From Geminicoccaceae bacterium (GTDB lineage: Bacteria > Pseudomonadota > Alphaproteobacteria > Geminicoccales > Geminicoccaceae), in NCBI GenBank assembly GCA_036796215.1, contig DAIRDJ010000004.1, positions 2,077 through 66,076 on the forward strand: 64,000 nt of DNA, written 5' to 3'. The translations under genes were made by a program, and so were the position numbers. The notes under the pieces were generated by a model. That model worked only from the letters and a program-made list of their open reading frames with translations, did not search any database and was not told the origin of the DNA. Position 1 is the first letter of the stretch. Each line of letters begins with the position of its first letter. Shown in pieces: positions 11,492 to 27,900 of the stretch.

Positions 11492-11776
11492 AAATGATTA
11501 ACAAGAATTGCGCTTGACCGGCCAATTCTAAATCGGCATATCCCGGTGCAACCGATTCGGGGTCCGTGACGCGTGTCATTGTTGAAGATTGTTGGCGGCA
11601 TGGGTTATGAAGAAGACGTTTTCGACAAGACCAAAAGGGCCCTTGTGCTGCGGTTTAGTTAAAAATTACTTGTGAAGAGACAATTCATGGTTGATCAAGG
11701 TAGGTCCATCGGCATGGCCTTGCCGACTGAGCGCCTTTCGATGGCAAGCTGCGGGAACGGTGACGGGCAGGAGCGA

Positions 11777-12985
11777 ATGGACTTGGGTAGCAGCGCTATG
11801 AACTCGGCGGGCGAAAACGCTGGTTGCACGGCAACGGTCGGCAACGCTGTGTCGACCGCCGCAGCGGAACGGGGCGGCAGGCTGCGAGTGGGCGTAGTGG
11901 GTTGCGGCTATTGGGGGGCCAAGCATGTGCGCGTGCTGAGCGGTCTCGCCGACGTTGGCCGGGTCGTCGTCATCGATCGCGACCCGGCGATTCGCGCCGC
12001 CATCACCGCCGCGTTCCCGGCTGTCGAAAGCTGCGCCAGCCTGGAGGGCGCATTGCCACTGGTCGACGCGCTCGTGGTCGCGACGCCCCCGCAGAGCCAT
12101 GCGAATGTTGCCCTGGCCGGCATCGCTGCGGGCAAGCACGTGATGATCGAGAAGCCGATGACAGCGACTCTGGCCGACGCGCGGCGGCTGGTTGCCGCTG
12201 CCGATGCTGCAGGCGTCGTTCTCATGGCGGGGCACACATTCGAGTTCAACCCGGCGGTGCGCGAACTGCGGCGGCGGCTGGATCGGGGCGAGCTTGGTCG
12301 GCCCTACTACATTCATTCGGCGCGGCTCAACCTCGGTCTTTTCCGCTCTGATGTCGACGTCGTCTGGGACCTCGCACCACACGACATCTCGATCATGAAC
12401 TATTTGCTCGGCGCTGTTCCCGATCGGGTCTCGGCCTGGGGCTCGGCGCATGCCTGCCGTGAGGTCAACGACCTCGCCTATATCAAGCTGCATTACGACA
12501 GCCTCGGCGTGACGGGACATGTCCACGTCTCCTGGCTCGATCCCCGGAAGGTGCGGACCGTGACGGTCGTCGGCAGCCAGAAGATGGCCATCTACGACGA
12601 TGTCGCCGACGAGCGCTTGCGCATCTTCGATTGTGGTGTGGAGGCTGGCGATCCGGTTGGTGGTGACGATTCGCTCGTCCCCTACGAGCGTCCGTTCGCC
12701 TATCGGCACGGCGACATCGTCTCGCCCCGCATCTCCGGCGAGGAGCCGCTGATGCTCGAAAATCGCCACTTCGTCGATTGCATCCGTGGCGCTGCCGAGC
12801 CGCTCAGCGACGGCCGCAGCGGCCTTGCCGTGGTCGCGGTCCTCGACGCCGTTGATCGCGCCGTCGCCAGGGGTGAGACCGTCGAGGTCGCGTCGATCCC
12901 GCAACGGCGGCAGCGGCCGTCACCAGACCGAGCGGCATACCGGGCGCCCGCGTCCGTCGTCGCCCAGCAGTATCGAGTCGCCTGA
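11777..12985 (+). CDS. Gfo/Idh/MocA-family NAD-dependent sugar oxidoreductase (WbpB/GnnA-like 3-dehydrogenase candidate)
   Basis: ORF 11672..12985. Rossmann motif LRVGVVGCGYWGAKH and MIEKPM motif. Start set to ATG 11777 (AGGAG 5 nt upstream); the exact start is uncertain. Confidence 0.8.
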   Translation: MDLGSSAMNSAGENAGCTATVGNAVSTAAAERGGRLRVGVVGCGYWGAKHVRVLSGLADVGRVVVIDRDPAIRAAITAAFPAVESCASLEGALPLVDALVVATPPQSHANVALAGIAAGKHVMIEKPMTATLADARRLVAAADAAGVVLMAGHTFEFNPAVRELRRRLDRGELGRPYYIHSARLNLGLFRSDVDVVWDLAPHDISIMNYLLGAVPDRVSAWGSAHACREVNDLAYIKLHYDSLGVTGHVHVSWLDPRKVRTVTVVGSQKMAIYDDVADERLRIFDCGVEAGDPVGGDDSLVPYERPFAYRHGDIVSPRISGEEPLMLENRHFVDCIRGAAEPLSDGRSGLAVVAVLDAVDRAVARGETVEVASIPQRRQRPSPDRAAYRAPASVVAQQYRVA

Positions 12986-13075
12986 GTCCAAGAGGTGCCC
13001 TGAAGCCGGTGATCCGTTCGATCCCCTAGCCGTCTTGCCCGTCCTCAGCCCCGCCCGCCTGGAAGGCTCTCGTTG

Positions 13076-14230
13076 ATGACCGACACCGTTCCCTTTCTCG
13101 ACCTCGCCCGGTCGCACGCCGAGCTGCGTGCCGAGGTCGACGACGCCTGGCACCGGGCGGTCGACAGCTCGGGCTTCATCGGTGGCGCCGCGGTGGAGCG
13201 CTTCGAGACGGATTGGGCCGCCTATTGCGGCACCCGCCATTGCGTCGGCGTCAGCGATGGCACGGCCGCGATCGAGCTCGCACTCGCCGCGCTGCGCATC
13301 GGCCCAGGTGACGAGGTGATCGTGCCGGCAAATACCTTCATCGCGACGGTGGAGGCCGTGACGAAGGTCGCAGCCGTCCCGGTCTTCGCCGATGTCGATC
13401 CCGCGACCCTGTTGCTCGATCCGAACGCAGCGGCAGCGGCAATTGGGCCGCGCACCCGGGCGATCATCGCTGTCCACCTCTATGGTCAGCCTTGCGACAT
13501 GGACGTGCTGCAACCCCTCGCCGATCGCCATGGCCTCGAGCTGATCGAGGACGCGGCGCAGGCGCACGGTGCTACCTGGCGTGGCCGGCGAGCGGGCTCC
13601 CTGGGGCGTGTCGGTTGCTTCAGCTTTTATCCCGGCAAGAATCTGGGGGCTTTCGGCGATGCCGGGGCGGTGACCACCGACGATCCGGCGATCGCCCAGG
13701 AAATCCGCAGCCGCGCCAATCACGGTCGGCCGCTGGGCATCGCCGAGCGCTGCGATGTGCTTGACGGCAACCACCGCCTTGATGCCTTGCAGGCCGCGAT
13801 TTTGGCCGTCAAGCTCCGCCACCTCGATCGCTGGAACGCCGCGCGGGCTGCTGTGATGCAGCGCTACGTGGCCGAGCTCGGCCCGGCGGGTTTGGCCTTC
13901 CCGACCATCCGCGACGAGGCGACCAGCAGCTGCCATCTTGCGATTGCCCTCGTTCCCGACCGCGACGAGGTGCGCCGGCGACTCGCGGCCGCCGGAATCG
14001 CCACTGGCATCCACTACGCCATTCCCTGCCACCGTCAGCCGGCCTGCGCCGAGCTCGTGGCGCGCGCCCGTCTCGCACCAGAGGTGCCGGTGGTCGACGC
14101 GACCGCGGGCCGACTCCTGTCGCTGCCGCTATTCCCGCAGCTCACCGGCGGAGAGGTGCAGCGGGTGATCGATGCGGTCACGGCGATCCTTGCGACGACT
14201 GACCCGGCGATCAGGGACCGGGCTGCATGA
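13076..14230 (+). CDS. DegT/DnrJ/EryC1/StrS-family PLP-dependent sugar aminotransferase
   Basis: ORF 13073..14230. VPFLDL start, GGAAVERFE, DGTAAIELAL, IVPANTFIAT and FSFYPGKNLGAFGDAG motifs. Confidence 0.85.
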   Translation: MTDTVPFLDLARSHAELRAEVDDAWHRAVDSSGFIGGAAVERFETDWAAYCGTRHCVGVSDGTAAIELALAALRIGPGDEVIVPANTFIATVEAVTKVAAVPVFADVDPATLLLDPNAAAAAIGPRTRAIIAVHLYGQPCDMDVLQPLADRHGLELIEDAAQAHGATWRGRRAGSLGRVGCFSFYPGKNLGAFGDAGAVTTDDPAIAQEIRSRANHGRPLGIAERCDVLDGNHRLDALQAAILAVKLRHLDRWNAARAAVMQRYVAELGPAGLAFPTIRDEATSSCHLAIALVPDRDEVRRRLAAAGIATGIHYAIPCHRQPACAELVARARLAPEVPVVDATAGRLLSLPLFPQLTGGEVQRVIDAVTAILATTDPAIRDRAA

Positions 14231-15432
14231 CCAGCGCCGAGCTCACCGGCAGTAGAACAGGCGAGTCGGCCATCGCTCTCGGTTCAGCGGTCGGAAGCAG
14301 CGCTGGCGATGCTCTGCTGTGGCCGTGCGCGGGCGTTGTCCCGAGCCCCGCCGAGCGGGCCTGGGATCGCTTCGTCGAGGCGCATCCGGGCGGTGATGTG
14401 GTGCAGACGGCGGCTTGGGCGCAAAGCAAGCAGGCGACGGGATTTGCCGTGGCGGTTGCGGTGAGCCGTGACGCCAGTGGCGTGATCGCCGGCGGTGGAC
14501 TTGTGATCGCGCGACGGGTGGCGCTGGCCGGTGGGCGCTTGCCGGTGGCGACTGTGGGTTACGTTGCCCGCGGCCCGCTGGTGACGAGCACCGATGCGGC
14601 CACGATCGACCGGGTGCTGGACTCGGTCGAGGCGGCGGCGCGCCGGCTCGGTATCATGCACCTCGTCGTCCAGCCGTCGAGTGACGGTGCCGCGATCGCA
14701 GCGCGACTCGTGCAGCGCGGCTACGACGCTGGTGCCATGGCGGTAGCGCCGACGGCGACACTGGTGATCGATCTGACGCCTGACCTCGACAGCGTCTTTG
14801 CGGGGATGTCCGCGTCGCAGCGGCGCAATCTGCGCAAGGCGAAGAAACTGGGCGTCCGGGTGCGCCGCGCCGCCGACACTGACCTTTCGACCTTCCATGC
14901 CCTGCAGGAAGCGACCGCCGCTCGGCAAGGCTATCAACCGCTGTCCCTCGCGTATCTGGAGGCGCAGTGGCAAGCATTGCGGCCGCTCGGCGCCATCGAG
15001 ATCTTCCTCGTATCCGCGCCCGACGCCCCGGAGCGGCCGATTGCGGGCACGTTGGTGACTGCCTATGCCGGCAGGGTCACGGACAAGATCCCGGGCTGGA
15101 CCGGCGAGGCTCCGGCTTTGCAGCCCAATGTCGCCTGCATCTGGGAGGCAATCACCTGGGCCAAGGCCGGGGGGTTTCGTCACTTCGATCTCGGTGGGCT
15201 GCCAAGGGATGCGGCAGCAGCACTCTTGGCCGGCGACCGCACCAGGGAAGCACATGGCGAGCGCAACCCTGCCGCCTTCAAGGCCCGTTTCGGTGGCAGC
15301 GTCGTGATGTTGCCCGAGGCGCTGCAGCGCACCTTCAACCCGGTTCTGCGCCCGGCCCTCCGCTTCGCCTGGCGCCAGCTGGTCACCAGTCCCCGCCTCA
15401 AGTCATTTGTGAACGGTCTGCGCAATGGTTGA
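14227..15432 (+). CDS. FemAB-family (lipid II:aminoacyl-transferase-like) GNAT-fold protein
   Basis: ORF 14227..15432. VVQTAAWAQSK..., RGPLV, QRRNLRKAKKLGV, YAG...IPGW, WEAITWAKAGGFRHFDLGG follow the FemX/FemAB layout. ATGA overlap with the aminotransferase gene. Confidence 0.65.
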   Translation: MTSAELTGSRTGESAIALGSAVGSSAGDALLWPCAGVVPSPAERAWDRFVEAHPGGDVVQTAAWAQSKQATGFAVAVAVSRDASGVIAGGGLVIARRVALAGGRLPVATVGYVARGPLVTSTDAATIDRVLDSVEAAARRLGIMHLVVQPSSDGAAIAARLVQRGYDAGAMAVAPTATLVIDLTPDLDSVFAGMSASQRRNLRKAKKLGVRVRRAADTDLSTFHALQEATAARQGYQPLSLAYLEAQWQALRPLGAIEIFLVSAPDAPERPIAGTLVTAYAGRVTDKIPGWTGEAPALQPNVACIWEAITWAKAGGFRHFDLGGLPRDAAAALLAGDRTREAHGERNPAAFKARFGGSVVMLPEALQRTFNPVLRPALRFAWRQLVTSPRLKSFVNGLRNG

Positions 15433-16078
15433 TCATCCGCCCGCCGCCACCCTTGGGCGCGGCCGCATCGACGGTCAGCGCCTGTTCGACCTGACCCTCA
15501 CCATCCCGATCCTGATTCTAATCGCACCCGTGCTTCTGCTTGCCGCCATCGCGGTCGGGCTGACCAGTCGCGGGCCCGTGCTGTTTCGCCAGATCCGCGT
15601 TGGCCGGGGCGAACAGCCGTTCTGGATGCTCAAGTTCCGCACGATGTACGTCGATGCCGACCATCGCTTGCAGGAAGAGATGAATCGCCGCGAGCTGATG
15701 GGTGAGGCGGTCGCCGAGAACGGTCTTTACAAGCCCGCACTCGATCCGCGGATCACCCCGGTCGGTCAGGTTCTGCGCAAGAGCAGCATCGACGAGCTGC
15801 CCCAGCTCTTCAATGTTCTGAAGGGCGAGATGTCGCTGGTTGGTCCACGTCCCGCCTTGCCATTCGAGGTCGAGCTGTTCACGCCCGAGGAGCGGCGCCG
15901 CCACGACTGCCGCCCCGGGATCACCGGCGTTTGGCAGGTCTGCGGCCGCAATCGCTTGTCCATGCGCAAGATGCTCGCGCTCGATCTCGTCTACGTCAAC
16001 TACCGCTCGTTCAAGCTCGATCTTTGGGTGCTCCTGAAGACCCCGAAGGCCGTTCTGTTCGAGCGGGCGACGCGCTGA
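15425..16078 (+). CDS. Small monotopic phosphoglycosyl transferase (bacterial sugar transferase family, PglC/WbaP C-domain type)
   Basis: ORF 15425..16078. LFDLTLTIPILILIAPVLLL re-entrant helix, GPVLFRQIRVG, KFRTM, DELPQLFNVLKGEMSLVGPRP. Confidence 0.9.
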   Translation: MVDHPPAATLGRGRIDGQRLFDLTLTIPILILIAPVLLLAAIAVGLTSRGPVLFRQIRVGRGEQPFWMLKFRTMYVDADHRLQEEMNRRELMGEAVAENGLYKPALDPRITPVGQVLRKSSIDELPQLFNVLKGEMSLVGPRPALPFEVELFTPEERRRHDCRPGITGVWQVCGRNRLSMRKMLALDLVYVNYRSFKLDLWVLLKTPKAVLFERATR

Positions 16079-16088
16079 GCGTACGCCG

Positions 16089-17039
16089 GTGACGACACTC
16101 CTGATCGCCACCACGGGCGGCCACCTGGCACAGCTGGTGGAACTTGCCGGACGACTGCCCGGCATCGGCCCCGAGCGGCTCTGGGTGACGTTCGATACGC
16201 CGCAGAGCCGCTCGCTCTTGGCCGGCCAGGCGGTGCGTTTCATCCCGTTCATCCACGAGCGTGACGTGTTGGGCGTCGCCCGCGGGACCGCGATCTGCCG
16301 GCAGCTGTTCAAGGAGTTGCCCATCGAGGCCGTCGTCAGCACCGGCTCGGCTATCGCTTTGGCCTTTCTTCCCTATGCGGCGCTGCGTGGGGTTCCGGCC
16401 CACTACATCGAAAGCTCGGCCAGGGTAGGGGCGCCCTCTCTCACCGGTCGCCTGCTCGCCGGCATGCCCGGCATCCGGCTCTATCGGCAGTACCCGCACG
16501 CCGCGACCGGCCGCTGGGTCTATGGCGGCTCGGTTTTCGATGTGTTCGCCGTCGCCCCCGGTCTCGTCGAGGCCGCCCCGGTGCGCCGCGCAGTCGTTAC
16601 CCTGGGCAGCGTCGAGCAGAGCTTTCGCCGACTGCTCGACCATCTGGTCCCACTCCTGCGCGCGGATGCCGAGGTGCTCTGGCAGACCGGACACACGCCG
16701 ACCGACGGCCTCGGCATCGAGGCGCGCCCGTTCCTGCCGGCAAGCGAGCTCGCCGGTGCCATGGCCACGGCCGACGTCGTCGTGGCTCACGCCGGTTGCG
16801 GCTCCGCTCTTGGAGCGCTCAATGCCGGCAAGCTGCCGATCCTCGTCCCCCGCGATGCCGCTCGAGGCGAGCTTGTGGATGGCCATCAGATCGAGCTCGC
16901 GCGCTGGCTCGCCGGGCGCGGCCTCGCCTTGCACCGGTCGCCCGAGAGCCTGACCTTGGCCGACCTCGAGCACGCGGCTGCAGTGCGGGTGCGGCGCACG
17001 GTCGAACCGCCACCCTTTGCCTTGGCGAGTGCAGCATGA
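16089..17039 (+). CDS. Fused Alg14-like / Alg13-like (GT28 C-terminal, MurG-fold) glycosyltransferase
   Basis: ORF 16089..17039 (GTG). The N-terminal half LLIATTGGHLAQL is Alg14/PssD-like. The C-terminal half VVTLGS...VVAHAGCGSALGALNAGKLPILVPR...GELVDGHQIELA is Glyco_tran_28_C/PssE-like. Confidence 0.75.
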   Translation: MTTLLIATTGGHLAQLVELAGRLPGIGPERLWVTFDTPQSRSLLAGQAVRFIPFIHERDVLGVARGTAICRQLFKELPIEAVVSTGSAIALAFLPYAALRGVPAHYIESSARVGAPSLTGRLLAGMPGIRLYRQYPHAATGRWVYGGSVFDVFAVAPGLVEAAPVRRAVVTLGSVEQSFRRLLDHLVPLLRADAEVLWQTGHTPTDGLGIEARPFLPASELAGAMATADVVVAHAGCGSALGALNAGKLPILVPRDAARGELVDGHQIELARWLAGRGLALHRSPESLTLADLEHAAAVRVRRTVEPPPFALASAA

Positions 17040-18142
17040 CTGCCGTTGCATCTATCCGACTGCGTGATGGACTGTTTGGTGCCGATCCGGATGACACTGC
17101 GCTCATGGCGCTGCGCCCCGATGATCCGCGCTACGCCGCCTTTGCCGAGCGGCACGCTTTTGCTGGCTTGTTCACCTCACCGCCCTGGCTGCGGGCGCTC
17201 GAGGTCGCCTATGGCTTCACCGTTGAGATCGCCACCCTTTGCCGCGCCGGTGCGATCGTGGCCGCCATTCCTCATTGTCGTCTCGATGATCTGCGTGGCC
17301 CGCGGGTCGTTGCACCCCCGTTCTCCGACTACGGCGATCCCCTGGTCGAAAGTCCAATCGATCTCTCGCTGCTGCTCGAGCATCTCGCGGCCTTCGGCTG
17401 CGGTCTGCGCCTGCGCACGCTGCGCAACCCGCTGCCTGCGCAACATGCCACGCTACAGACCACCGGTGAGGCGTTCTGGCACGGTATCGACCTGGATCGC
17501 CCGCTCGAGACGATTTGGGCCGGGCTCGATGCCTCTGCCCGGCAGAACTGCCGCAAGGCGGAGCGCGGCGGTGTGACCGTGCGGATCGGCTGCAGCGAGG
17601 CGGATCTGGACCTGTTCCACCGCATGCACGTGCATGTGCGCAAGACCAAGTACCGGATGCTGGCCCAGCCCGTCGGCCTCTTTACCGCGATTCAGAGCAC
17701 GTTCACCGTACCGCCCGGGAGCAGCGACGACGTCGCGGTGGTGATCGCCGAAGTGGATGGCGAGCCGATCGCCGGGATCATGCTGATGCTCTGGCAGGGA
17801 ACCGCCTATTACAAATTCAATGCATCATTCGATACCCGACTACGGCCCAACGACCTCCTCGCATGGCACGCGATCCGTTACGCCAAAGAACGCGACTGTC
17901 GTGCGTTCGACTTCGGCATTTCCGATACCGACCAGCCCGGTCTCGTTCGCTACAAGCGCAAATTCGCGACCGAGGAGAAGCTGATGCGGCAGCTGATGCT
18001 GCCGTCGCCACGAGCCACCGCACCGCATGAGCAAATGGCTGGCCGGACCCTCGGCCGGCTGACCGAGCTCCTGACCCGTCCCGAAGTACCCGATGCCGTC
18101 ACAAGGGAGGCTGGCGATGCCCTCTACCGCTATTTCGCCTGA
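17036..18142 (+). CDS. BioF2-like / CelD-type GNAT-fold acyl(aminoacyl)transferase
   Basis: Real part of ORF 16796..18142 from MTAVASIR (ATG 17036, ATGA overlap). ARQNCRKAERGGV, GTAYYKFNASFD, CRAFDFGISD, LVRYKRKFA resemble Acetyltransf_6-type proteins. Confidence 0.6.
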   Translation: MTAVASIRLRDGLFGADPDDTALMALRPDDPRYAAFAERHAFAGLFTSPPWLRALEVAYGFTVEIATLCRAGAIVAAIPHCRLDDLRGPRVVAPPFSDYGDPLVESPIDLSLLLEHLAAFGCGLRLRTLRNPLPAQHATLQTTGEAFWHGIDLDRPLETIWAGLDASARQNCRKAERGGVTVRIGCSEADLDLFHRMHVHVRKTKYRMLAQPVGLFTAIQSTFTVPPGSSDDVAVVIAEVDGEPIAGIMLMLWQGTAYYKFNASFDTRLRPNDLLAWHAIRYAKERDCRAFDFGISDTDQPGLVRYKRKFATEEKLMRQLMLPSPRATAPHEQMAGRTLGRLTELLTRPEVPDAVTREAGDALYRYFA

Positions 18143-19427
18143 GCCCCGGCGGCCGGTCCGCCAGCGCCGCGGCGGTCCGATCGCTGCGGTGCTCGTTGCC
18201 GTCGGGCTGACAGGTGCGTCCGTTGGACCGGCCTTCGCCGCCGCCTGGCCCGCCGAGCTCGGCCCGGTGCTTTCCTGGACGCCGCCCGTTGGCGCTGCCA
18301 ATCCCGGACAGTGCACCCGGGTAGTGGACCGCGGCCGTGATCCAGCGGCCAGTATTCAGGCTGCGGTCGACGAGGCCGGACCCGGCGACATGGTTTGCGT
18401 TCGCTCGACGAACCACCGCGACGAAGTCGTCGAGATCGGGCGCTCGGGTGCACCCGGCAGGCCGATCGAGCTCCATGCGCTCGCCGACGTGGTGACCGGC
18501 GGCTTCATCGTCGAGGCCGATGACGTCATCGTCCGCGGCTTCACCGTCCAGACCGGCGCCGCCACGGATGCGGAAGACTGGCGCGCCGGCTTCGAGCTCC
18601 GGGGGCGGCGCCTCGGCATCATCGACAACACGGTCACGGACCCGGCAGGCTACGGCATCCACTGCAGCCTGGGGGCGCCGCACTGCACCGACACGGCGAT
18701 CATCGGCAACACGATCAGCGGTGCCGACGGCAACGGCATCAACGCCATCGGGTATGACCTCCTGGTCGAGGGCAACGACGTCTCGGGCTCGATCAGGCGC
18801 TTAGCCAACGATGCCGACGGCATCCGCTTCTTCGGTGAGCGCCTGCTGCTCCGCGACAACATCGTCCACCGCATCTTCGACCGCGGCTACAAGGGCGAAG
18901 GGCCGCACACCGACTGTTTCCAGAATTTCGATTCCGGCCGGCCCTCGACCCGCGACGTGGTGATCGAGGACAATGTCTGCTTCGACGTCGACCACCAGTG
19001 TCTGATCGCCGAGACACCGGTCCGGCGCGAGGGCGCCAACCTCATCTTTCGACGCAACATCTGCGCGAACAACGGCAGCCAGGGTGTGATGGTTCGCGAG
19101 TTCGACAATTTGCTGGTCGAAGAGAACATTTTTTTATCAACCATCCATTTCAACGCCGTGGTGCTGCGGCAGGAGGTCACCAACGCCACCATTCGCTGCA
19201 ACCTCGTGGTCGGCCGGCCGGCCGTGCACGAGATCGACCAGAGCTCGCGGCAGGGGCTGCGCGTAACGGGCAACCAGCGCGCCGAAAGCCCGGCCGCCGC
19301 ACCCGCCGCGCGCGCGGCCCTCGCCAAGGGCGGCTGCAACGTGCCGCCGCTCTTCCCCTGGCTCAAAAAAAGTGTCCTGCTACCCGACGACACGCTCGTG
19401 GACGCTGGCCGAGAGCTTCGCCTATGA
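18117..19427 (+). CDS. Secreted right-handed parallel beta-helix repeat protein (polysaccharide lyase/hydrolase/epimerase-like)
   Basis: ORF 18093..19427. Start at ATG 18117 (GGGAGG 6 nt upstream). Arg-rich N-terminus plus hydrophobic signal ending AFAAA. Repeated I-x-N/D-N-x-V/I rungs (IIDNTV, IIGNTISG, VEGNDVSG, LRDNIV, IEDNVC, FRRNIC, VEENIF). Confidence 0.65.
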   Translation: MPSTAISPEPRRPVRQRRGGPIAAVLVAVGLTGASVGPAFAAAWPAELGPVLSWTPPVGAANPGQCTRVVDRGRDPAASIQAAVDEAGPGDMVCVRSTNHRDEVVEIGRSGAPGRPIELHALADVVTGGFIVEADDVIVRGFTVQTGAATDAEDWRAGFELRGRRLGIIDNTVTDPAGYGIHCSLGAPHCTDTAIIGNTISGADGNGINAIGYDLLVEGNDVSGSIRRLANDADGIRFFGERLLLRDNIVHRIFDRGYKGEGPHTDCFQNFDSGRPSTRDVVIEDNVCFDVDHQCLIAETPVRREGANLIFRRNICANNGSQGVMVREFDNLLVEENIFLSTIHFNAVVLRQEVTNATIRCNLVVGRPAVHEIDQSSRQGLRVTGNQRAESPAAAPAARAALAKGGCNVPPLFPWLKKSVLLPDDTLVDAGRELRL

Positions 19428-20158
19428 TCGAGATCTATCGTCTACCGTTCTGGCCGGCAGTGCGCTTGGTCTATCGCTCCGGGCGCGTATCGCTCCAACT
19501 CCTGGTCGACCGGGCGCTGGACGTGCGAACGACCCTGCTGCGCAACGAACTCAGCATGGGTCACGATCGACCGCCGGACTTCGATCATGGGCCGGTCGGT
19601 TGGATCAGGCTGTTGCGCATCTTCCGTCATCTAGCCCCGAACCGGGCGGACGTGCTCTATGACGTCGGCTCGGGCAACGGCCGAGCGGTCGTGGTCGCCG
19701 GCCAGTTCCCGTTCGGCAAGATCGTTGGCGTCGAGATTTCGCCCGACATGCACGCACAGGCCAAGGCAAACCTCGCGAGCTGCCGGCTGAGGCCCAAAGC
19801 AGCAGTCGAGCTCTTGCATGGTGATGCTCTCGCGCAGCCGATCCCCGACGACACGTCGGTCGTCTATTTCTACAACTCGTTCACCGGGCCGGTTTTTGAT
19901 CGTTTCGTCGATCATCTTCTCGACGATCTCGATCAAAACCCGAGACCGCTGCGGTTCGTCTATACCAACCCCATCGAGCACCCTAAGCTGGAAGCCGACG
20001 AGCGCTTTCGGCTCGTCCACCGTATTCGCGGCTGGCGCCCGACGGCGAACTGGTCGCGGATGCTGAGCACGCATTTCTATGAAATCCTGCCATCGGATGC
20101 CGCCGCTCGTGCCCTGGCTCGCGGAGAGCGTGATGCTGGCCAGCGAACTGCACAGTGA
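19424..20158 (+). CDS. Class I SAM-dependent methyltransferase (paralog 1)
   Basis: Real part of ORF 18998..20158 from MIEIYRLPFW (ATGA overlap at 19424). Motif I VLYDVGSGNGR, then VGVEIS and HGDAL. Confidence 0.75.
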   Translation: MIEIYRLPFWPAVRLVYRSGRVSLQLLVDRALDVRTTLLRNELSMGHDRPPDFDHGPVGWIRLLRIFRHLAPNRADVLYDVGSGNGRAVVVAGQFPFGKIVGVEISPDMHAQAKANLASCRLRPKAAVELLHGDALAQPIPDDTSVVYFYNSFTGPVFDRFVDHLLDDLDQNPRPLRFVYTNPIEHPKLEADERFRLVHRIRGWRPTANWSRMLSTHFYEILPSDAAARALARGERDAGQRTAQ

Positions 20159-20179: not shown

Positions 20180-20887
20180 ATGATAGACATTCATCGCCTG
20201 CCGTTCTGGCCGGCCCTCCGGCTGCCCTATCGCTTCGCCCGCTCGTCGCTGCAGATCGCCGTCGACAAGTCTTTGGGTGTGCAGACCACGTTGCTGGATA
20301 ACGAGCTCCATGTCGGCCTCGACCGCCCAGCGACATTCAAGCACGGCCCGGTCGGCTGGACCACGCTCTGGCGAATCTTCCGCCGCCTCGGCCCGGCGCC
20401 GGAAGACGTGCTCTATGAGGTCGGCTGCGGCAACGGCCGGCCACTGATCGTGGCGCGACAGTTCCCTTTCAAGCGACTGGTCGGCATCGAGCTGTCCGCC
20501 CGCATGCATGAGCAGGCCGTCGCCAACCTTGCCAGCTGCCGGTTGGGGCCCAAGAGCCCGGTCGAGCTGATCAATGGCGACGCCCTCGCTCAGCCGATCC
20601 CCGAAGGCACCTCGATTGTGTTCTTCTCGAGCCCCTTTCAGGGCGAGCTTTTTGATCGCTTCATCGCCAATCTGCTCGACGATCTCGATAGCCACCCGCG
20701 CCGCTTGCGCTTCGTCTACTATAACCCGCGCGAGCACGCCAAGCTCGAGGCATCGGGTCGTTTTCGCCTCGACCATCGCTTTCGCGGACTGCGACCGAGC
20801 CGCGAGTGGTCGCGAATGCTGACCACGCACTTCTACGAGGTTCTACCATCCGACGCCGGGCGGCCATCGTCGGCGGATCGCAAGTAG
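20180..20887 (+). CDS. Class I SAM-dependent methyltransferase (paralog 2)
   Basis: ORF 20180..20887. Colinear, gap-free similarity to the preceding gene (MIDIHRLPFWPALRL..., VLYEVGCGNGR, VGIELS, NGDALAQPIP). Confidence 0.75.
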   Translation: MIDIHRLPFWPALRLPYRFARSSLQIAVDKSLGVQTTLLDNELHVGLDRPATFKHGPVGWTTLWRIFRRLGPAPEDVLYEVGCGNGRPLIVARQFPFKRLVGIELSARMHEQAVANLASCRLGPKSPVELINGDALAQPIPEGTSIVFFSSPFQGELFDRFIANLLDDLDSHPRRLRFVYYNPREHAKLEASGRFRLDHRFRGLRPSREWSRMLTTHFYEVLPSDAGRPSSADRK

Positions 20888-20904
20888 CGTGAAGGAGACA
20901 GGTG

Positions 20905-21774
20905 ATGTCCTCGACCAGCGCGGAGTTGCGCCGACCCAAGGGCAGTGACGCGAGCGTGGCGGCTCGCGTCGCGATCGACCAAAAGGGCACCCGCCTGCCG
21001 ATGCGCTCGAGCCGACTGGCGAACGAGGCCGGTGGGCTGGCGGTGGCGACCTCGCCGCTCGAGCCCACCGCGATGCCCGCGGCAATACCGGGCCCTCCCG
21101 ACGAGGGGCACCCTGTCGCGAACCGCGCCATGCAGCCGACCGACCGACGGCTGCCGCACGGTGCCGCTTCGGCGCCGGCTGCAGCCGTCCCCGAAGCGAC
21201 AGCCCCTGGCCGCCGCACCGCTGGGGTCGGCCGAATTCTGCTCTCGCTGGCGCTCCTCTTCTTGCTGCCGGTGCTGCTCGCCGCGACAGCCGGCTATCTA
21301 GCCGCCACTTATCTCGAGGAAGTCCGTGCCGGCCGCAGCGAGATCATGTTTCACCTGCCGGACCTCGCCGGCGACGCTGCCGGACGCTTCCTCGCCACCC
21401 AGCCCGTGGTGGTCCGCAGCTACCCGGTGGTCGAGCCCGCCGCCCGGGCCGAGGCGATGCCGGTCAACGACATTCTCGGCAATCTCGACGTCACCATGGT
21501 GGAGAGCAGCGCCCTGATGCGCATCGAGTACCAGGACACCGACAGCGAGCGGATTCTGCGCGTGCTCGAGGCCGTCACCGTTGGCTATCTCGGCCTGTTG
21601 CGCGACATCGCGATGATCGAGGGGGCGAGCCATCGGATCCTGAGCGCCCCCTATCTGCTAGAGGAACCGGTCGGACCGAAGCCCATCCAGGCTGCCGCCA
21701 TCGCCGCCGTGGTCGGGCTCGCCGTAGCCTTTGCCGGCCTCGTTATCCTCGCCCAACTGCGTCGTCCGGCCTGA
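20905..21774 (+). CDS. Short polysaccharide co-polymerase (Wzz/PCP-like) with a Pro/Ala-rich cytoplasmic N-terminal extension
   Basis: ORF 20902..21774. ATG 20905 has AAGGAG 7 nt upstream. TM1 ILLSLALLFLLPVLLAATAGYL, a periplasmic segment of about 130 aa, and the hallmark Pro-rich motif EEPVGPKP immediately before TM2. Confidence 0.6.
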   Translation: MSSTSAELRRPKGSDASVAARVAIDQKGTRLPMRSSRLANEAGGLAVATSPLEPTAMPAAIPGPPDEGHPVANRAMQPTDRRLPHGAASAPAAAVPEATAPGRRTAGVGRILLSLALLFLLPVLLAATAGYLAATYLEEVRAGRSEIMFHLPDLAGDAAGRFLATQPVVVRSYPVVEPAARAEAMPVNDILGNLDVTMVESSALMRIEYQDTDSERILRVLEAVTVGYLGLLRDIAMIEGASHRILSAPYLLEEPVGPKPIQAAAIAAVVGLAVAFAGLVILAQLRRPA

Positions 21775-21787
21775 CGCCGGTGCGTGG

Positions 21788-23470
21788 ATGGACTCGATGA
21801 CGACGTCGGTGGGCAAGGTGGCCGATGCGACCGCGGCCGAGTCGGCAGGGGCGCGACACCGCGCCGATGTGAGCGAGCTCGCCGGCCACTCGCGGACCGT
21901 CCTCGTCTGGACAGTCGCCAGCCGGGCCGCGGGTTTCTTGCGCGCCGCGCTTCTCGCCGCCGTCCTCGGCCCGACCTTCTTCGGCAATCTCGTGCAGACG
22001 AGCCTGGTCCTGCCCCACCTCGTCTGCCAGCTCCTGATGGCGTCGCTAGTCCCGGCGATCTTGACCCCGCACTTGGTGCGCCTGCTCGACGCCGGCGAGC
22101 GGGAGCAGGCGCACCGCCTGACCTGCAGCTTCTTCGGTCTTGCCTGCGCCTGCTTCGGCGTCGCCGCCCTGCTGACGGTGCTCGCCGCTCCGCTGATCCT
22201 GCCGGTCTTGACCGTCGCGGTCGAGGACCCGGCCATCCGCATGGCGCAGCACGATCTCGGCTGGTACCTCATTCTCTGCATCGCGCCGCAGATCCCGCTG
22301 TTCGGCGTCGTCTCGATCGGTATCGCGGTCCAGCAGGCGCAACGCCGGTTCGCGCTCGCGACTGCTGCCCCCGCCTTCGAAAGTCTCGGCTTCGGCCTGA
22401 TCCTCGCCCTGAGCGCCTTGGTCTTCGGCATCGGTAGCGATATCGACGAGATCAGCCACGCCCAGGTCCTCTTCATCGGCATCGGTGCCACGCTCGCCGT
22501 CACCTGCCATGCCGCCGTGCAGTGGTGGGGGGCTTTTCGTCTCGGCGTGACGCTCCGGCCGCGGGGCGGCTGGTTCGCCCCGGAGCTCCGCGCGGTGCTG
22601 CGCATGGCGCTGCCGTCGAGTGGCAACGCCATCCTGGTCTCGCTCGGCTGGGTCGCGATGCTGGTCGTCGCCGGCGGCATCCCCGGCGGTGCGGTTGCCT
22701 TCCAGATCGCCTACAACCTCTTCAACCTGCCGATAGCACTTTGCGCCCGGCCGATCGCAACGGCCCAGCTGCCGCTGATGGCGAGCCGCATCGCTGGAGG
22801 TAGCAGTGCTACCGCCCTCTTTCACGATGCGCTGCGGTTGACCTTCTTCGTCGCTTTGCCGGCCGCCCTCGTCTTTCTCCTCATGGCCGACCAGCTGGCA
22901 CTGCTGATCAGCGTCGGCGGCATGCGCACCGAGGCCGGCCTCGGCCTCGTTACGATAGCCATTGCGGGGCTCGGCCTCGCCCTGCTCGGCGAAGGCGTCA
23001 TGGTGGTGTCGAGTTCCGCCGCCTACGCCCGCCACGACGCCGCTTCGCCCTTTCGCGCGATGGCGCTGCAGACCGCGATCCTCGGCTGCGGCCTCGTGCC
23101 GATCGCACTGCTCACCGATGGCGCCGAGCGGCTCGGCGCCATCGGTCTCGTCTTCTCGGCTGCTACGCTGGTCGGCGGTCTCTACCTCTACCGTGCCCAG
23201 CTCGCAGCCGGCCGCCCGAAGGTCGACTGGTCGCTCGCCCGCGACCTCGGCTGCGCCATCGTCGCCGTCGGCGTCGGCGTCGCAATGGTCGACGTCTGGC
23301 CCGGCCCGGCGGGTATCGTTCCGGCGCTCGTCAGCTTGACCGTTGCAGCCCTGCTCTATCTCGCGATCCAATGGCTCGCGAGCTCGCGGGAGCTCGCCCT
23401 CGTGCTGCGAACCGTTCGCCCTTCTGGAGCTGTCGGCGGTACGGCCACGCATGGCGAGGTTCGCGGCTGA
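21788..23470 (+). CDS. MurJ/MviN-type MOP-superfamily lipid-linked glycan flippase
   Basis: ORF 21731..23470. N-terminal SRAAGFLRAALLAAVLG... resembles the MurJ SRxxGFxRd motif. About 14 predicted TM segments. Confidence 0.7.
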   Translation: MDSMTTSVGKVADATAAESAGARHRADVSELAGHSRTVLVWTVASRAAGFLRAALLAAVLGPTFFGNLVQTSLVLPHLVCQLLMASLVPAILTPHLVRLLDAGEREQAHRLTCSFFGLACACFGVAALLTVLAAPLILPVLTVAVEDPAIRMAQHDLGWYLILCIAPQIPLFGVVSIGIAVQQAQRRFALATAAPAFESLGFGLILALSALVFGIGSDIDEISHAQVLFIGIGATLAVTCHAAVQWWGAFRLGVTLRPRGGWFAPELRAVLRMALPSSGNAILVSLGWVAMLVVAGGIPGGAVAFQIAYNLFNLPIALCARPIATAQLPLMASRIAGGSSATALFHDALRLTFFVALPAALVFLLMADQLALLISVGGMRTEAGLGLVTIAIAGLGLALLGEGVMVVSSSAAYARHDAASPFRAMALQTAILGCGLVPIALLTDGAERLGAIGLVFSAATLVGGLYLYRAQLAAGRPKVDWSLARDLGCAIVAVGVGVAMVDVWPGPAGIVPALVSLTVAALLYLAIQWLASSRELALVLRTVRPSGAVGGTATHGEVRG

Positions 23471-24939
23471 TGGCGAGCCTCGGCGTCACCGCCTTGCCTT
23501 CAGGTCACAGCGACCGGCGTCGCCCGGTTTGGCCGCTCCTTCTCGGCCTCGTCGGCGTCAGCCTCGCCGCCGCTCTCGGCGGTGTCGCCACCGGCCTCGG
23601 CGAACTGAAGGGTGCGGCGGTTGCCATCGCCGTGCCGATCGGTCTCGCGATCTACGCAGCACCACAGCTCGGCCCCTATCTCTGGCTCCTCGCGAGCCCG
23701 CTGACCGTCGGTCTCGCCCGCGGCGATATCCTGCCCTTCGTCCGCCCCAACGAAGCCTTGCTGCTGCTGATCCTCGGCGCCGTCGCGTTTCGCGTCGTCC
23801 CGCTCGTGCTCGCCGGCCGCTGGCGTCTGCCGCCACTCGGCCGCTTCGATCTCGCCCTCGGCCTGTTGGTGGTCACGGGCTCGCTCCTGCCCGTGTGCAT
23901 CCGCCTCGGCCGCGATCTGCCGCTCGCCACGGACGACGTGCTCTACAGCCTCGTGTTGATCAAATACCTGCTCCTCTACACGCTGTTTCGCCTGACCATC
24001 ACCACCACGGCGCAGGTGCGCGTCTGCCTCGTGTTGGCCCTCGCCGCGGCCGTGCCGGTGGCCCTCGTTGCGCTCTTGCAGGTTAACGGCCTGTTCGGCG
24101 TGCCGGAGTTCCTCGCGCGGTACTACGACTCGCCGTTCTCCGGCGGGCAAGGCGCTCCGGTCACCTCCCGCGGCACCTCGACCGTGGCGAGCTCATTCGG
24201 TGTCGCCAACCTCATGATCCACACCGCGAGCATCGTCTCCGGATGGATGATCGTCTACGGCCGGCCGCGTGGCGTGCTGCTCTGTATGGGAGTGGTCTGC
24301 TTGTTCGGCGTGCTCGCCGCCGGCCAGTTCTCCGGTATCATCGGCGTCGCCATCGCGATCACCATCACCGGTTGGCTGATCGGCCGGCTGCGCCAGGTCA
24401 TGCTCTGGGCACTGCCGGCCCTGGCCCTCGGTGCAGCACTGCTCTGGCCGGTTCTCGAACAACGGCTGAGCGGGTTTGAGCGGGATTCCGGTCTGCCGCA
24501 GAGCTGGGAAGGTCGCATCGACAATATGGAACGCTTCATTCTTCCGGAGCTCGCCTCGGGCGACAACTGGTTTCTCGGCGTCCGCCCCGCACCTCGGGTC
24601 GCCGCACCCGAATGGTGGCGCGAGTACGTCTATATCGAAAGCGGCTATGTTTGGCTGTTGTGGATCGGCGGCGTGCCGTTCCTCGTGGCTTTCCTCGCTT
24701 TTGCCTGGGTCGGGATCACCGAGTTCGGCCGGGTCTGCCGAACACGCCAGGATGCCGTCGGCATCGCCGCACTCGCGGCGACCACCGGTCTTACCATAGT
24801 GACCGTCCTGATGCTGTTCGATCCCCACCTCACGATGCGCGGCGGCGCCGATCTGATGTTCCCGCTCATGGCCCTCGCCCTGCTGGGGCCGGCCGCGCGC
24901 CCCGATCCCGTCGTACCAGCCGAGCGAGCTCGACCATGA
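23470..24939 (+). CDS. O-antigen ligase/Wzy-like polytopic membrane protein (candidate polymerase)
   Basis: Real part of ORF 23371..24939 from MASLGVTAL (TGATG overlap at 23470). Many TM segments with one larger loop (FERDSGLPQSWEGRIDNMERF...). Confidence 0.6.
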   Translation: MASLGVTALPSGHSDRRRPVWPLLLGLVGVSLAAALGGVATGLGELKGAAVAIAVPIGLAIYAAPQLGPYLWLLASPLTVGLARGDILPFVRPNEALLLLILGAVAFRVVPLVLAGRWRLPPLGRFDLALGLLVVTGSLLPVCIRLGRDLPLATDDVLYSLVLIKYLLLYTLFRLTITTTAQVRVCLVLALAAAVPVALVALLQVNGLFGVPEFLARYYDSPFSGGQGAPVTSRGTSTVASSFGVANLMIHTASIVSGWMIVYGRPRGVLLCMGVVCLFGVLAAGQFSGIIGVAIAITITGWLIGRLRQVMLWALPALALGAALLWPVLEQRLSGFERDSGLPQSWEGRIDNMERFILPELASGDNWFLGVRPAPRVAAPEWWREYVYIESGYVWLLWIGGVPFLVAFLAFAWVGITEFGRVCRTRQDAVGIAALAATTGLTIVTVLMLFDPHLTMRGGADLMFPLMALALLGPAARPDPVVPAERARP

Positions 24940-27900
24940 CCCGCAGCCCATCTTCACATACCCGACGCATCGCCTGGCTCGCCGGCCTGACCCTGCTCGC
25001 CGCCTGCAACTACGAGAGCGGCGAGCGGGCGCTCGAACGGGGCGACGAGATGCGCGCCGCCGAGATTTGGCAGCCGCTCGCCAGGCGCGGCGACATGCGC
25101 GCGGCCCTGGCCCTGGCACGCCTCGACACCGGCGCAGATGCCACGCCGGCGGAGCTCGACGAGGCCGAGCGCGAACTCCGGCGGGTGCTCCGCCTCGGCG
25201 AGGGCTGGCAACAGGGCTGGGCCTACTACGAGCTCGCCCGTGTGGAACGCCAGCGCGACCGGCCGGTCGAAGCCGCGGCCTATTACGAGGAAGCGCTGGA
25301 GCGCGGTGTCGAATGGGCCGCCTACGACCTCGGCCAACTCTTGGCCGAGGGCAGGGGGGTCCAACCGGACCCGGCACGCGCCTTGCGTCTCACCGAGCAG
25401 GCCGCCGACGAAGGCGTGGCACCGGCGATGACCGCGATGGGCACGTTCTACGTCCGGGGCATCGGCGTCGCCGCCGATCCCGAAGCCGCTAGGCGCTGGT
25501 ACGAGAAAGCCGCCGCGGCCGGCGATCCCTGGGGCCAATTCGCCCTCGGCCAATTGCTGCTGGCCGCCGATCGCGAAGGCGGCGAGCTCGACCCCGCCGG
25601 TGCTGCGGCAGCGTTCGAGGCGGCTGTCGCCGAGGGCATCGTCCAGGCGAAACTACCGCTCGCCGACCTCCTCCTGCCATTCGACCCGGCTACGGCCGAG
25701 GTCGTTCCCGCGGATCCGAACCGGGCCCTCGCCCTCTATACCGAGGCGGCCGCGGCCGGCGATGCCTGGGCGAGCTATCGCCTCGCCGAAATCTACGCCT
25801 CCGGCCGGCTCGCCCCGGCCGACCCCGAGCGCGCGGCCAAGCATTACGCCAAAGCGGCGGAAGGCGGCATCGGCCTGGCGGCGAAGGCCTTGGGCCGGCT
25901 CTACGAGCTCGGCCAGGGTGTGCCGGTCGATCCGGCCCGCGCCGCTGACCTCTACACCACTGCGGCAGCCGAGGGCGATATCGACGCCGTGCTGGGCCTC
26001 ATTCGGCTCGCCCGCCTGCCCGATCCCCCGCCGATCGACACAACCACGCTTCTGGCCGAACTGGAGGTGGCGCTCGACCTGCGCCCCGCCGATGCCGGTC
26101 AGGTTCTGGGCGACCTCTATCTCGCGGGTGATCTCGTCCCGACCGACCCCGTGTTGGCCACAGGCTACCTGGAGACAGCGCTCGCCGCCGGCAACACGAC
26201 GGTCCGGCCGCGCCTGGCACGGCTCTATCTCGATCCTACGCTTGAGCTCGGTGGTGCCGGCCGCGACGCCGAGGCGGGCCGGAGACTCTTGGAGGACGCC
26301 GCTGGCGAGGGTGACCCCAATGCCGCCTTCGAGCTCGCCCGCCTGCTCGAGGCGCCACCCGCGGCCGATCCGGCGCGCGCTCGCAGCCTCTATACCGCGG
26401 CTGCCGAAGCCGGCGTCGCGGCCGCGCAAAAAGCGCTTGCCGACCAGTTCCGTGACGGGATCGGTGGCCCCCAGGATCGCGACCTCGCCGTCCGGTGGTA
26501 TGAGGTCGCGGCGGCCGGCGGTGATCCCTGGGCCGCTTTCGAACTCGCCCGCCTGCTCGAAACGGGCGCTGGCGTGGCTGCCGATCCGGCTCGTGCCCGC
26601 AGCCTCTACGCTAGGGCGGCGGCTGCACAAATCGCCCCGGCCCAGCAGGCGCTGGCCGGCATGCTGCGCGACGGTCGAGGTGGTCCCCCCGACATCGTGG
26701 CGGCGGGGCGCTGGTATCGGGCCGCGGCAGATGCCGGTGAGCCTTGGGCCGCCTACGAGCTGGCACAGCTCTATGCCGCGGACACGGCGGGCGTTCTGCC
26801 GGCCGATCGCAGCCGCACCGAGACCATGACCATCCTCTACCGCTCCGCTGCCAATGCTGGCATCCCGCAGGCTCAGTTGGCTCTAGGCGATCTCTTGGCC
26901 GATCCCGCGAACCCGGCCGCCGATCCGGCGGCGGCAGCCGCCTGGTACGAGCGGGCGATGGCTTCCGGCGAACCCATAGCGGCCTTCCGCCTTGCGCGGT
27001 TGCCATCACCCGGCACCACATCCGCGAACCTCGAGCCGAGGCGGCGCGCATTGCTCGAGGAGGCGGTCGCCGCCGGCGTGCCGGGTGCAGCTACAGAGCT
27101 CGCGCGGCTGCTGGAATCGGACGAGGACGGGGCCCCCGATCCGGCTCGGGCTCTGGAGCTGTACCAAAGTGCCGCTGCCGAGGGTGATCCCTGGGCGGCA
27201 CTTGCCTTGGGTCGCCACTACCAGGGGGACGCGCGGACGCCGACCCGGGGATCGCGGGATCCGGATCTGGCAATTGTCTGGCTCGAGCAGGCCGCCGCGG
27301 CCGACATTGCCGAAGCGAAGCGCCGCCTCGGTGACCTCTATGCCGATTCGGCGAGCGACCACTTTGCCCCCGAGAGCGCCGTGCGCTGGTACGAAGCTGC
27401 AGCTGCGGACGGTGACGAGTGGGCCATGATAGAGCTTGCCAAGCTCAGGATGGATGGCCCGGCCGGCATCGCCGATCCGGCGGCTGCCGCCCGGGCGCTC
27501 GAGCCACTCGCCGAGGCCGGGCTGCCGCAGGCGCAGAAGCTGCTGGGCGACCTCTATGATCGCGGCCAGGGGGTGCGGGCCGATCCAGAAACCGCTGTCG
27601 CCTGGCACCGCGCGGCGGCGCAAGGGGGTGATCCCTGGGCCGCGTTCGCGATGGCAGAACGCCATTCGCGGGGCCGCGACGTGCCACGCGATCCGGATCG
27701 GGCCCGCGAGTACTATGTCATCGCGGCGGCGGCCGGTCTGGCGCCGGCACAGCGCTGGCTCGCCGACGCGGAGATGATGCGGGCCATGGCCAGCCGCGGG
27801 GCGGAGGCGGAGGCTGCGCGCGGTAGTGCGGTGACCTGGTATCAAGCGGCGGCCGAGGGCGGGGATGCCCGGGCGCTCTATCGTCTTGGCATTCTGCATC

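Follow-up and report, generated by a model that had tools for sequence, protein, structure and literature searches.

The window analysed here, a stretch of 64,000 nucleotides from a Geminicoccaceae bacterium (contig DAIRDJ010000004.1), has a GC content of about 68%; from about 11.7 to 28.1 kb, its genes form a row on one strand, two of them encoding Fem-type transferases, P0001 and P0002. P0001 (14227..15432, + strand, 401 residues) encodes a FemX-like tandem-GNAT transferase, marked by K68, a basic helix at residues 195-214, F351-K352 and a basic C-terminal tail ending in LRNG. P0002 (17036..18142, +, 368 residues) encodes a CelD/HfsK/VimA-like Fem-fold tandem-GNAT transferase with an invariant Y306-K307 pair, an R169/R173 helix and a PFSDYxDP motif. 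Both open reading frames had been pointed out in an earlier note, and all the motifs quoted there were recovered: VVQTAAWAQSK at residue 58, RGPLV at 115, QRRNLRKAKKLGV at 198 and WEAITWAKAGGFRHFDLGG at 306 of P0001, and GTAYYKFNASFD at 255, AFDFGISD at 290 and LVRYKRKFA at 303 of P0002. Upstream of P0001 lie the genes for a Gfo/Idh/MocA oxidoreductase (11777..12985, +; the start is uncertain and may be GTG 11672, ATG 11777 or later) and for a DegT-family pyridoxal phosphate-dependent aminotransferase (13073..14230, +). Between P0001 and P0002 sit a small monotopic phosphoglycosyl transferase (PGT) of the PglC/WbaP catalytic-domain type (15425..16078, +; Pfam Bac_transf, 6.1e-62; PDB matches WbaP, 5e-37, and PglC 8g1n, 6e-33) and a GT28_C glycosyltransferase (16089..17039, +), which resembles a fused PssD-PssE (Alg14/Alg13-like) enzyme and is distantly MurG-like. 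The ATG of both P0001 and P0002 overlaps the preceding stop codon as ATGA, and all junctions from the DegT gene through the Sel1-repeat gene that closes the run overlap or leave gaps of at most 21 bp, so that a single operon is plausible. The two proteins do flank the sugar transferases as the same note had described, and they share their operon with an amino-sugar-forming pair.

P0001 and P0002 are FemABX-superfamily tandem-GNAT proteins, an assignment that we hold with very high confidence. In Pfam, P0001 matched FemAB (PF02388; 3.1e-20, 72.8 bits) and Acetyltransf_6 (PF13480; 2.1e-15, 57.6 bits), while P0002 matched the same two families in reverse rank (Acetyltransf_6, 3.6e-17, 63.3 bits; FemAB, 1.1e-7, 31.5 bits), and all four scores exceed the gathering cut-offs of 24 bits for FemAB and 22 bits for Acetyltransf_6. 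The two proteins share 33% identity across 147 residues of the C-terminal domain. This identity, together with the common Pfam families, indicates that they are distant paralogues of one superfamily and not two kinds of enzyme. Against the NCBIfam FemX equivalog NF047883, P0001 scored 34.5 bits and P0002 22.8 bits, far short of the curated threshold of 500. Within NCBIfam, the strongest match of P0002 was TIGR03019 (the FemAB family associated with the XrtA/PEP-CTERM system), at 66.1 bits against a cut-off of 260, P0001 reaching 35.5 bits. Given these sub-threshold scores, both proteins are members of the Fem superfamily orthologous to no named equivalog. A place in TIGR03019, with its PEP-CTERM context, was rejected on the same scores and because no exosortase (PF09721) match was found in the 96.6%-complete genome. 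An association with cellulose was likewise discarded: the name CelD/BcsL (COG5653) comes only from the COG tag placed by JGI on homologues, and the open reading frames of the cluster include no cellulose synthase domain. Homologues carry a mixture of database labels, 'lipid II:glycine glycyltransferase' for the P0001 type, with 'GNAT family N-acetyltransferase' and 'CelD/BcsL acetyltransferase' also in use.

The P0001 subfamily comprises 362 representatives (E <= 1e-30) in a library clustered at 50%. Some relatives are fusions, namely of a GT4 glycosyltransferase with a Fem domain (P0232, P0236 and P0163) or of two Fem domains in tandem (P0197, P0201, P0168 and P0159), and such fusions physically link the subfamily with the assembly of glycans and with action in sequence. 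In a further relative (P0292), a classical Acetyltransf_1 GNAT precedes the Fem domain, and this protein might possibly make an N-acetyl-aminoacyl group.

A profile built from 32 P0001 homologues matched S. aureus FemX (6snr, 1.6e-37), FemX of Weissella viridescens (FemX-Wv, 5.7e-19), FemA (4e-13) and the aminoacyl-tRNA-dependent peptide synthase Sbb17 (6.7e-10), whereas the profile from 41 P0002 homologues matched these proteins more weakly (the two FemX enzymes at 6.9e-8 and 1.5e-6 respectively). AlphaFold (AF2) models had a predicted local distance difference test (pLDDT) score of 86 for P0001 and 92 for P0002, and both display two GNAT domains in tandem. When these models were compared with the PDB by Foldseek, ranks 1-24 for P0001 and 1-17 for P0002 were all aminoacyl-tRNA-dependent enzymes: FemX, FemA and Sbb17/Sba18, the structures of which hold the amino-sugar substrate streptothrisamine, then aaPGS/MprF. 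Template modelling (TM) scores to FemX-Wv, normalised to the target, were 0.81 (P0001) and 0.71 (P0002). P0001 has no coiled-coil arm like that of the staphylococcal enzymes; its best superposition is with FemX-Wv, which uses a soluble UDP-linked acceptor. The structure prediction proposed in the earlier note thus placed both models closest to FemX, FemA and Sbb17/Sba18. The FemX/FemAB layout that it had read in the 401-residue protein was borne out by the FemAB and TM scores. The contrast that it drew with a CelD-type 368-residue protein was overstated, since P0002 has the same fold and the same catalytic lysine.

That lysine is kept in both families. In P0001 the segment AAFKARFGG aligns to NRFKLGFGG of Sbb17/Sba18, and K352 is kept in 31 of the 32 homologues; in P0002, the segment of S. 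aureus FemX that aligns with GLVRYKRK is GLWAFKKV, and all 41 homologues retain K307. A search with the C-terminal fragment of P0001 for a residue-level alignment to Lys305 of FemX-Wv returned nothing relevant. When a profile of the C-terminus was used, the FK motif found a partner only in Sbb17/Sba18, and the alignment to FemX-Wv ended before it; because no direct alignment reached K305, the equivalence of K352 with this residue rests on the family motif. According to a 2026 review, Lys305 of FemX-Wv and Lys329 of DhpH-C are the sole reactive residues of their active sites, and a basic helix in domain 2 contacts the acceptor stem of the tRNA (PMC12945691). The corresponding helix of P0001, SQRRNLRKAKKLGVRVRR, has a net charge of +9 in a protein with an isoelectric point (pI) of 10. 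On the acceptor side, the equivalent of K36 of FemX-Wv is K68 of P0001, kept in 31 of 32 homologues; in work of Maillard in 2005, K36 is reported to contact the phosphates of the UDP-precursor. P0001 also bears a basic tail of about 30 residues (370-401, window ~15334-15429), which FemX lacks. It comprises two predicted helices, has a net charge of +6 and ends in L-R-N-G, R399 being invariant and N400 and G401 nearly invariant among the 32 homologues.

The genes just upstream point to the likely acceptor. The oxidoreductase (Pfam GFO_IDH_MocA, 1.9e-24) had as its best NCBIfam match the UDP-N-acetylglucosamine (UDP-GlcNAc) 3-dehydrogenase family NF040723 (2.7e-50, below cut-off) and matched the PDB entries 3q2k (1.5e-21) and 7bvj (5.8e-21), which we take to be WlbA and GnnA. 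By these matches, it is likely a UDP-GlcNAc 3-dehydrogenase of the WbpB/WlbA/GnnA kind. The aminotransferase (Pfam DegT, 6.2e-109) is of the C3 type (WbpE/QdtB/DesV-like). It matched 2oga (1.6e-94; presumably DesV), 7b0d (1.2e-89; labelled glutamine--scyllo-inositol transaminase), QdtB 3frk (3.6e-81) and WbpE 3nyu (2.7e-74), so that its best functionally named solved relatives are C3-aminotransferases. In every pathway known to us, the 3-amine made by such a pair is next N-acylated. No N-acetyltransferase of the LbH/Hexapep/WbpD type was found among the open reading frames of the cluster or in the syntenic loci examined, and the cluster includes no 4,6-dehydratase. P0001 and P0002 are proposed for this step because they are the only N-acyltransferase candidates in the cluster.

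Synteny was established from the location of homologues in genomes and contigs combined with Pfam scans. The gene set was found in Geminicoccus, Benzoatithermus flavus, Rhodovastum, Roseomonas and metagenomes, and similar cassettes occur in many genomes. Among the named related records, identity was 72% for a Geminicoccaceae metagenome-assembled genome, 74% for a Rhodospirillales one, 48% for a Geminicoccus sp. and 44% for the cultured B. flavus SYSU G07066. Gfo, DegT, FemX-like, PGT, GT28, CelD-like and MurJ genes are all present in the related loci L011 (54% identity), L013 (47%) and L014 (38%), the first two of which additionally hold a beta-helix gene. In B. flavus the series reads GT28, CelD-like, MurJ, an unannotated gene, Wzc, a second FemX-like gene, a methyltransferase and the first FemX-like gene, with a beta-helix gene as well and DegT 10 kb upstream. 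The best P0001 homologue lies at most 11 kb from the best DegT match of the genome in 10 of the 15 genomes that hold a P0001 relative, and in one further genome a single contig carries both, with 42 kb between them. The number of Fem-type genes varies. Two loci, one on a Rhodovastum atsumiense plasmid (L032) and the other L034, have no Fem-like gene but one of the P0002 type, which directly follows Gfo-DegT-PGT(-GT28), and no other N-acyltransferase was found there. The P0001 type is thus absent from these two loci, single in the window, L011 and L014, and present twice in L013, L019, L033 and the Geminicoccus genome G042; in L033, from a Geminicoccaceae, both copies stand between DegT and PGT. 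Since no version of the gene set lacks the P0002 type, and the P0001 type occurs in zero to two copies, the P0002 type is the core of the module and the P0001 type an add-on. Among 12 genomes of the same genus, an orthologue of P0001 was found in two and one of P0002 in one, and this patchy presence marks the cluster as an accessory trait.

Several known systems resemble parts of this arrangement. In P. gingivalis and T. forsythia, WbpB, WbpE and WbpD lead to a di-N-acetyl sugar, VimE removes one acetyl group and VimA installs Ser or Gly; exchange of vimA swapped the amino acid in vivo, and the study does not treat the VimA donor (Veith et al. 2020, PMC7468200). Both systems have a WbpB-type 3-dehydrogenase and a WbpE-type 3-aminotransferase, and VimA and P0002 are both TIGR03019-like Fem-fold proteins, likened here by family match. 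In contrast to the Wbp/Vim system, the window cluster includes no WbpD, WbpA or WbpS, and a VimE-like CE4 deacetylase (PF01522), a possible source of a second amine, gave no match on this contig. The likely target would therefore be the fresh 3-amine and not a de-acetylated 2-amine. The window set also has two Fem subfamilies in variable copy number instead of one VimA, and it stands in an alphaproteobacterial, MurJ/MurG-like Wzx/Wzy context, whereas the Wbp/Vim glycan is the anchor of a type IX secretion system (T9SS). The pathway position proposed for the two Fem-type enzymes is held in UDP-ManNAc3NAcA synthesis by WbpD/WlbB, which acylates the amine arising from WbpB and WbpE; however, this enzyme is a left-handed beta-helix with acetyl-CoA as donor and is not encoded in the window cluster.

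Orf11/Sba18 has been shown biochemically to use Gly-tRNA for the aminoacylation of an amino sugar at its amine, which proves that the FemX fold can support such a reaction; no polysaccharide example is listed in the review of aminoacyl-tRNA-dependent GNAT-fold enzymes (PMC12945691). Orf11, Sba18 and Sbb17 (PDB 9wqw-9wqy), from streptothricin-type antibiotic pathways, share the FK-x-x-FGG motif with P0001 and were matched by Foldseek with E values of 1e-14 (P0001) and 1e-13 (P0002). They differ in being about 310 residues long, in an identity of only ~18% and in acting on an antibiotic intermediate, not on a nucleotide- or lipid-linked glycan precursor. The peptidoglycan enzymes FemX-Wv (UDP-MurNAc-pentapeptide:L-Ala transferase; 1ne9, 4ii9) and S. 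aureus FemX/FemA (6snr, 1lrz) have in common with P0001 and P0002 the tandem GNAT fold, the basic helix and the Lys305-type lysine. The sequential logic of FemX, FemA and FemB parallels the variable number of Fem genes in the present loci. The tail that distinguishes P0001 from FemX recalls HfsK of Caulobacter crescentus, a FemX-like tandem-GNAT holdfast modifier that is genetically linked to Wzx/Wzy exopolysaccharide synthesis; its C-terminal extension, absent in FemX, is required for membrane association and binds cyclic di-GMP (PMC5362036). Homologues of HfsK are coupled to various exopolysaccharide systems, and its own donor and acceptor have not been established (PMC5362036). In contrast to P0001 and P0002, HfsK is not encoded beside an aminotransferase pair. 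Finally, the C. difficile type B flagellin locus combines CDR20291_0244, of the FemAB superfamily, with the FdtB-like CDR20291_0247, and its glycan has a peptidylamido sugar (PMC5207246). Here too a FemAB-family gene accompanies a C3-aminotransferase-like gene, but in a Firmicute protein O-glycosylation system the locus of which also includes an ATP-grasp ligase. The role of CDR20291_0244 is unproven because the gene could not be mutated (PMC5207246).

Taken together, we consider it probable that P0001 and P0002 act on the amino sugar of a glycan, and the fuller proposal, in which a 3-amino sugar is N-aminoacylated from aminoacyl-tRNA, seems to us slightly better than an even bet. The operon product would be a glycan of the Wzx/Wzy type that begins with a 2-acetamido-3-amino-2,3-dideoxyhexose. 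The Gfo/Idh/MocA enzyme would oxidise UDP-GlcNAc, or a close relative, at C3 and the DegT enzyme would aminate C3 to give UDP-GlcNAc3N, first steps that are established for WbpB/WbpE and GnnA/GnnB (Larkin and Imperiali 2009, as far as PMC7468200 cites it). The two Fem-fold enzymes would then replace WbpD/WlbB and attach amino acids to the new amine, most likely from aminoacyl-tRNA, to judge from the family profiles and predicted folds, by the substrate-assisted, lysine-dependent mechanism of FemX. In a VimA-like role, P0002 may attach the first residue to the sugar amine, a placing that follows from parsimony, as its orthologues are present in all versions of the gene set. P0001 may then extend this residue at its alpha-amine, as FemX and FemA do, since it is closer to enzymes whose acceptor is an amino-acid amine on a UDP-sugar. 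The outcome would be an N-linked stem of two residues in this organism, and of one to three residues elsewhere, which would give the stepwise N-substitution suggested in the earlier note a concrete form. The small PGT would move the decorated sugar phosphate onto undecaprenyl phosphate, and the GT28-like enzyme would add a second sugar. A MurJ/Wzx-type flippase (21731..23470, +; Pfam MurJ, 1.3e-25) and a 522-residue protein (23371..24939, +), which gave no Pfam match and is a putative Wzy-type polymerase by its position, would export and polymerise the unit; an unannotated gene of 470-540 residues also follows MurJ in L013, L019, L033 and L034.

A number of observations weigh against this proposal. 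The donor is not proven by any experiment or by any feature of the sequences. Both the FK lysine and the basic helix are common to the whole PF13480/PF02388 clan, which is mostly uncharacterised, and its members in the PDB are all tRNA-dependent, so that the structural ranking is biased in that direction. P0002 is not basic overall (pI 6.6) and its helix has a charge of only +3. No dedicated tRNA gene was found near the cluster, the only one being tRNA-Val(TAC) at 4157-4231 (-), 10 kb away. R211 of FemX-Wv, which is needed for the D-Ala-D-Ala/phosphate network, corresponds to L239 in P0001 (Leu in 27 of 32 homologues). FemX thus gives no model for acceptor binding in P0001, and its acceptor should not be the peptidoglycan stem peptide. 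The order of P0002 before P0001 is a weak suggestion that depends solely on the parsimony of gene presence and absence, and the genes of the window, in the order DegT-P0001-PGT-GT-P0002, would point the other way. A different nucleophile might be used by the second Fem-like enzyme, and a uronic acid or an epimer is conceivable as the sugar, provided that the required genes sit elsewhere in the genome.

We regard it as unlikely that P0001 and/or P0002 are instead acyl-CoA-dependent N-acyltransferases that replace WbpD/WlbB, provide the 3-amino sugar with an N-acetyl or another N-acyl group and resemble Fem enzymes only through the shared tandem-GNAT fold. The naming of PF13480 ('Acetyltransferase (GNAT) domain') and the N-acetyltransferase or CelD/BcsL labels of homologues would fit this view, as would the discussion of HfsK as a possible acyltransferase (PMC5362036) and the fact that a 3-amine normally requires N-acylation in a cluster that offers no other acyltransferase. 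Tandem GNATs that use acetyl-CoA (e.g. 2wpw, 7q3a) do occur in both Foldseek lists, but lower down, and the closest relatives in sequence and structure are all aminoacyl-tRNA-dependent. An acyl-CoA donor retains some probability because the PDB holds no acyl-CoA-using member of the clan for comparison. Nevertheless, a conserved [RQ]xxGx[GA] loop for the pyrophosphate of acetyl-CoA was found in neither family (32 P0001 and 41 P0002 homologues), the stray occurrences of the pattern (3/32, 8/41 and 10/41 homologues) all lying outside the beta4-alpha3 position, while the catalytic lysine of the tRNA-dependent mechanism is kept as described above. With these loops missing and the FemAB scores and folds noted above, the two proteins do not present themselves as mere generic acetyl-CoA-dependent GNATs, the outcome that the earlier note had named as fatal to its suggestion. 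Moreover, VimA, of the same TIGR03019-like type, sets Ser versus Gly in vivo, and two or three enzymes for a single amine are hard to square with acetylation alone.

It is also rather improbable that the two enzymes serve different acceptors, P0001 aminoacylating the UDP-3-amino sugar after DegT and P0002 acting at the membrane on a lipid-linked disaccharide or another nucleophile, for instance a second sugar, a hydroxyl group or an anchor protein, in the manner suggested for HfsK. The window order Gfo-DegT-P0001-PGT-GT28-P0002 is colinear with such a pathway, but gene order differs in L011 and L019. The K36 equivalent K68 and the lack of the coiled-coil insert found in the lipid II-using staphylococcal enzymes would suit P0001 for a UDP-linked substrate, the N-domain of P0002 has the distinct invariant motif set PFSDYxDP, and HfsK is membrane-associated when working (PMC5362036). 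On the other hand, the P0002-only loci still contain Gfo-DegT with no other N-acyltransferase, and P0002 orthologues most simply serve the 3-amine there; furthermore, the contig has no gene for a deacetylase by which a second amine might be exposed.

The proposal of N-aminoacylation could be taken one step further, with little confidence. The conserved set might build a peptidoglycan-like secondary polymer, made of a disaccharide repeat with a tRNA-derived stem of 1-3 residues whose length is set by the number of Fem genes and whose free alpha-amine would serve for cross-linking or covalent attachment of proteins. Such a polymer would occur in Gram-negatives without exosortase and T9SS, from a set that sometimes includes N-methyltransferases. 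That the Fem-like proteins simply form an interpeptide branch on peptidoglycan precursors and hitch-hike in a polysaccharide operon is very improbable: although P0001 homologues are annotated 'lipid II:glycine glycyltransferase', the closest solved structures are peptidoglycan enzymes and the operon includes MurJ-like and MurG-like (GT28_C) genes, the FemX equivalog score is far too low, R211 is not kept, orthologues are confined to 2 of 12 genomes of the genus, and translational coupling links the genes to those for the amino sugar and the PGT, with which they are syntenic across phyla.

The remaining genes of the operon lie downstream of P0002. A right-handed beta-helix protein (18093..19427, +; Pfam Beta_helix, 8.1e-10), with homologues in L011, L013, L019 and L033, is followed by two S-adenosylmethionine (SAM) methyltransferases. 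The first (19424..20158, +) matched Pfam Methyltransf_25/11/12, and the second (20180..20887, +) weakly matched an archaeal protein-lysine N-methyltransferase (2.6e-8). SAM methyltransferases also accompany P0001-type genes in L014 (3606-4319, adjoining the Fem gene), L019 (9022-9714) and L011 (15177-15857), and the one between the two copies in B. flavus matches DOT1; none was seen in the two P0002-only loci, L032 and L034. A possible substrate of these enzymes is the amine of the attached amino acid, which they would N-methylate. Next come a short PCP-like (polysaccharide co-polymerase-like) protein (20902..21774, +; weak NCBIfam match to the XrtA chain-length determinant, 1.2e-4), the flippase and putative polymerase, and, as last gene, a Sel1-repeat protein of 1051 residues (24936..28091, +; Pfam Sel1, 8.1e-87, 11 stretches). 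In L034 its place after the P0002-type gene is occupied by a 1618-residue protein (10139-14995) that combines a CE4 polysaccharide deacetylase with an SLT-like domain and Sel1/TPR repeats, and this equivalent position suggests that the Sel1 protein of the window is a periplasmic scaffold handling the polymer. The one-Fem cluster of L032 is located at 65-85 kb of the 199-kb plasmid OW485603.1, adjoins insertion sequence and transposase genes and includes a gene of the UDP-glucose/GDP-mannose dehydrogenase family, a context that fits horizontal spread and a uronic-acid form of the sugar in that locus.

Directly upstream of the operon lies an oligopeptide-type ABC importer (7153-10736, -) with two permeases and two ATPases, preceded by a PGA_cap (CapA-like) gene (6209-7084). 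Elsewhere in the genome, three further Fem-clan genes were noted: a PF04339 FemAB_like protein (2.2e-152) at 12927-14126 of contig C94, a 307-residue Fem-like protein with an FK-x-x-LGG motif, adjoining a PhyH dioxygenase, at 12265-13188 of C104, and a Bpt/ATE aminoacyl-tRNA-protein transferase at 25034-26092 of C27. Among the neighbours checked, no polysaccharide-synthesis gene was found beside these three.

Amino acids are often joined by an amide bond to the amino sugars of O-antigens, capsules and protein-linked glycans. To our knowledge, hardly any enzyme for this attachment has been proven, the sole in vivo case being VimA and the sole in vitro case acting on an antibiotic intermediate. 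The decoration is nevertheless better documented than the earlier note had stated, since the chemistry has precedent, and a close one in the Wbp/Vim pathway (PMC7468200). The locus differs from that pathway in the likely targeting of the fresh 3-amine, the use of two Fem subfamilies, the variable Fem copy number and the alphaproteobacterial MurJ/MurG-like context, which has neither exosortase nor T9SS. For an enzymology that is unproven for polysaccharides anywhere, the locus offers a minimal setting, with one amine-forming pair, no competing N-acetyltransferase and two distinct Fem-type enzymes, and natural variants exist with one, two or three Fem-type genes, one of them in the cultured B. 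flavus SYSU G07066. The reading would correct the widespread labels 'lipid II:glycine glycyltransferase' and 'CelD/BcsL acetyltransferase' for these families. If it is true, aminoacyl-tRNAs would be diverted from translation to the decoration of a surface polysaccharide, and the number of Fem genes might set the length of the peptide.

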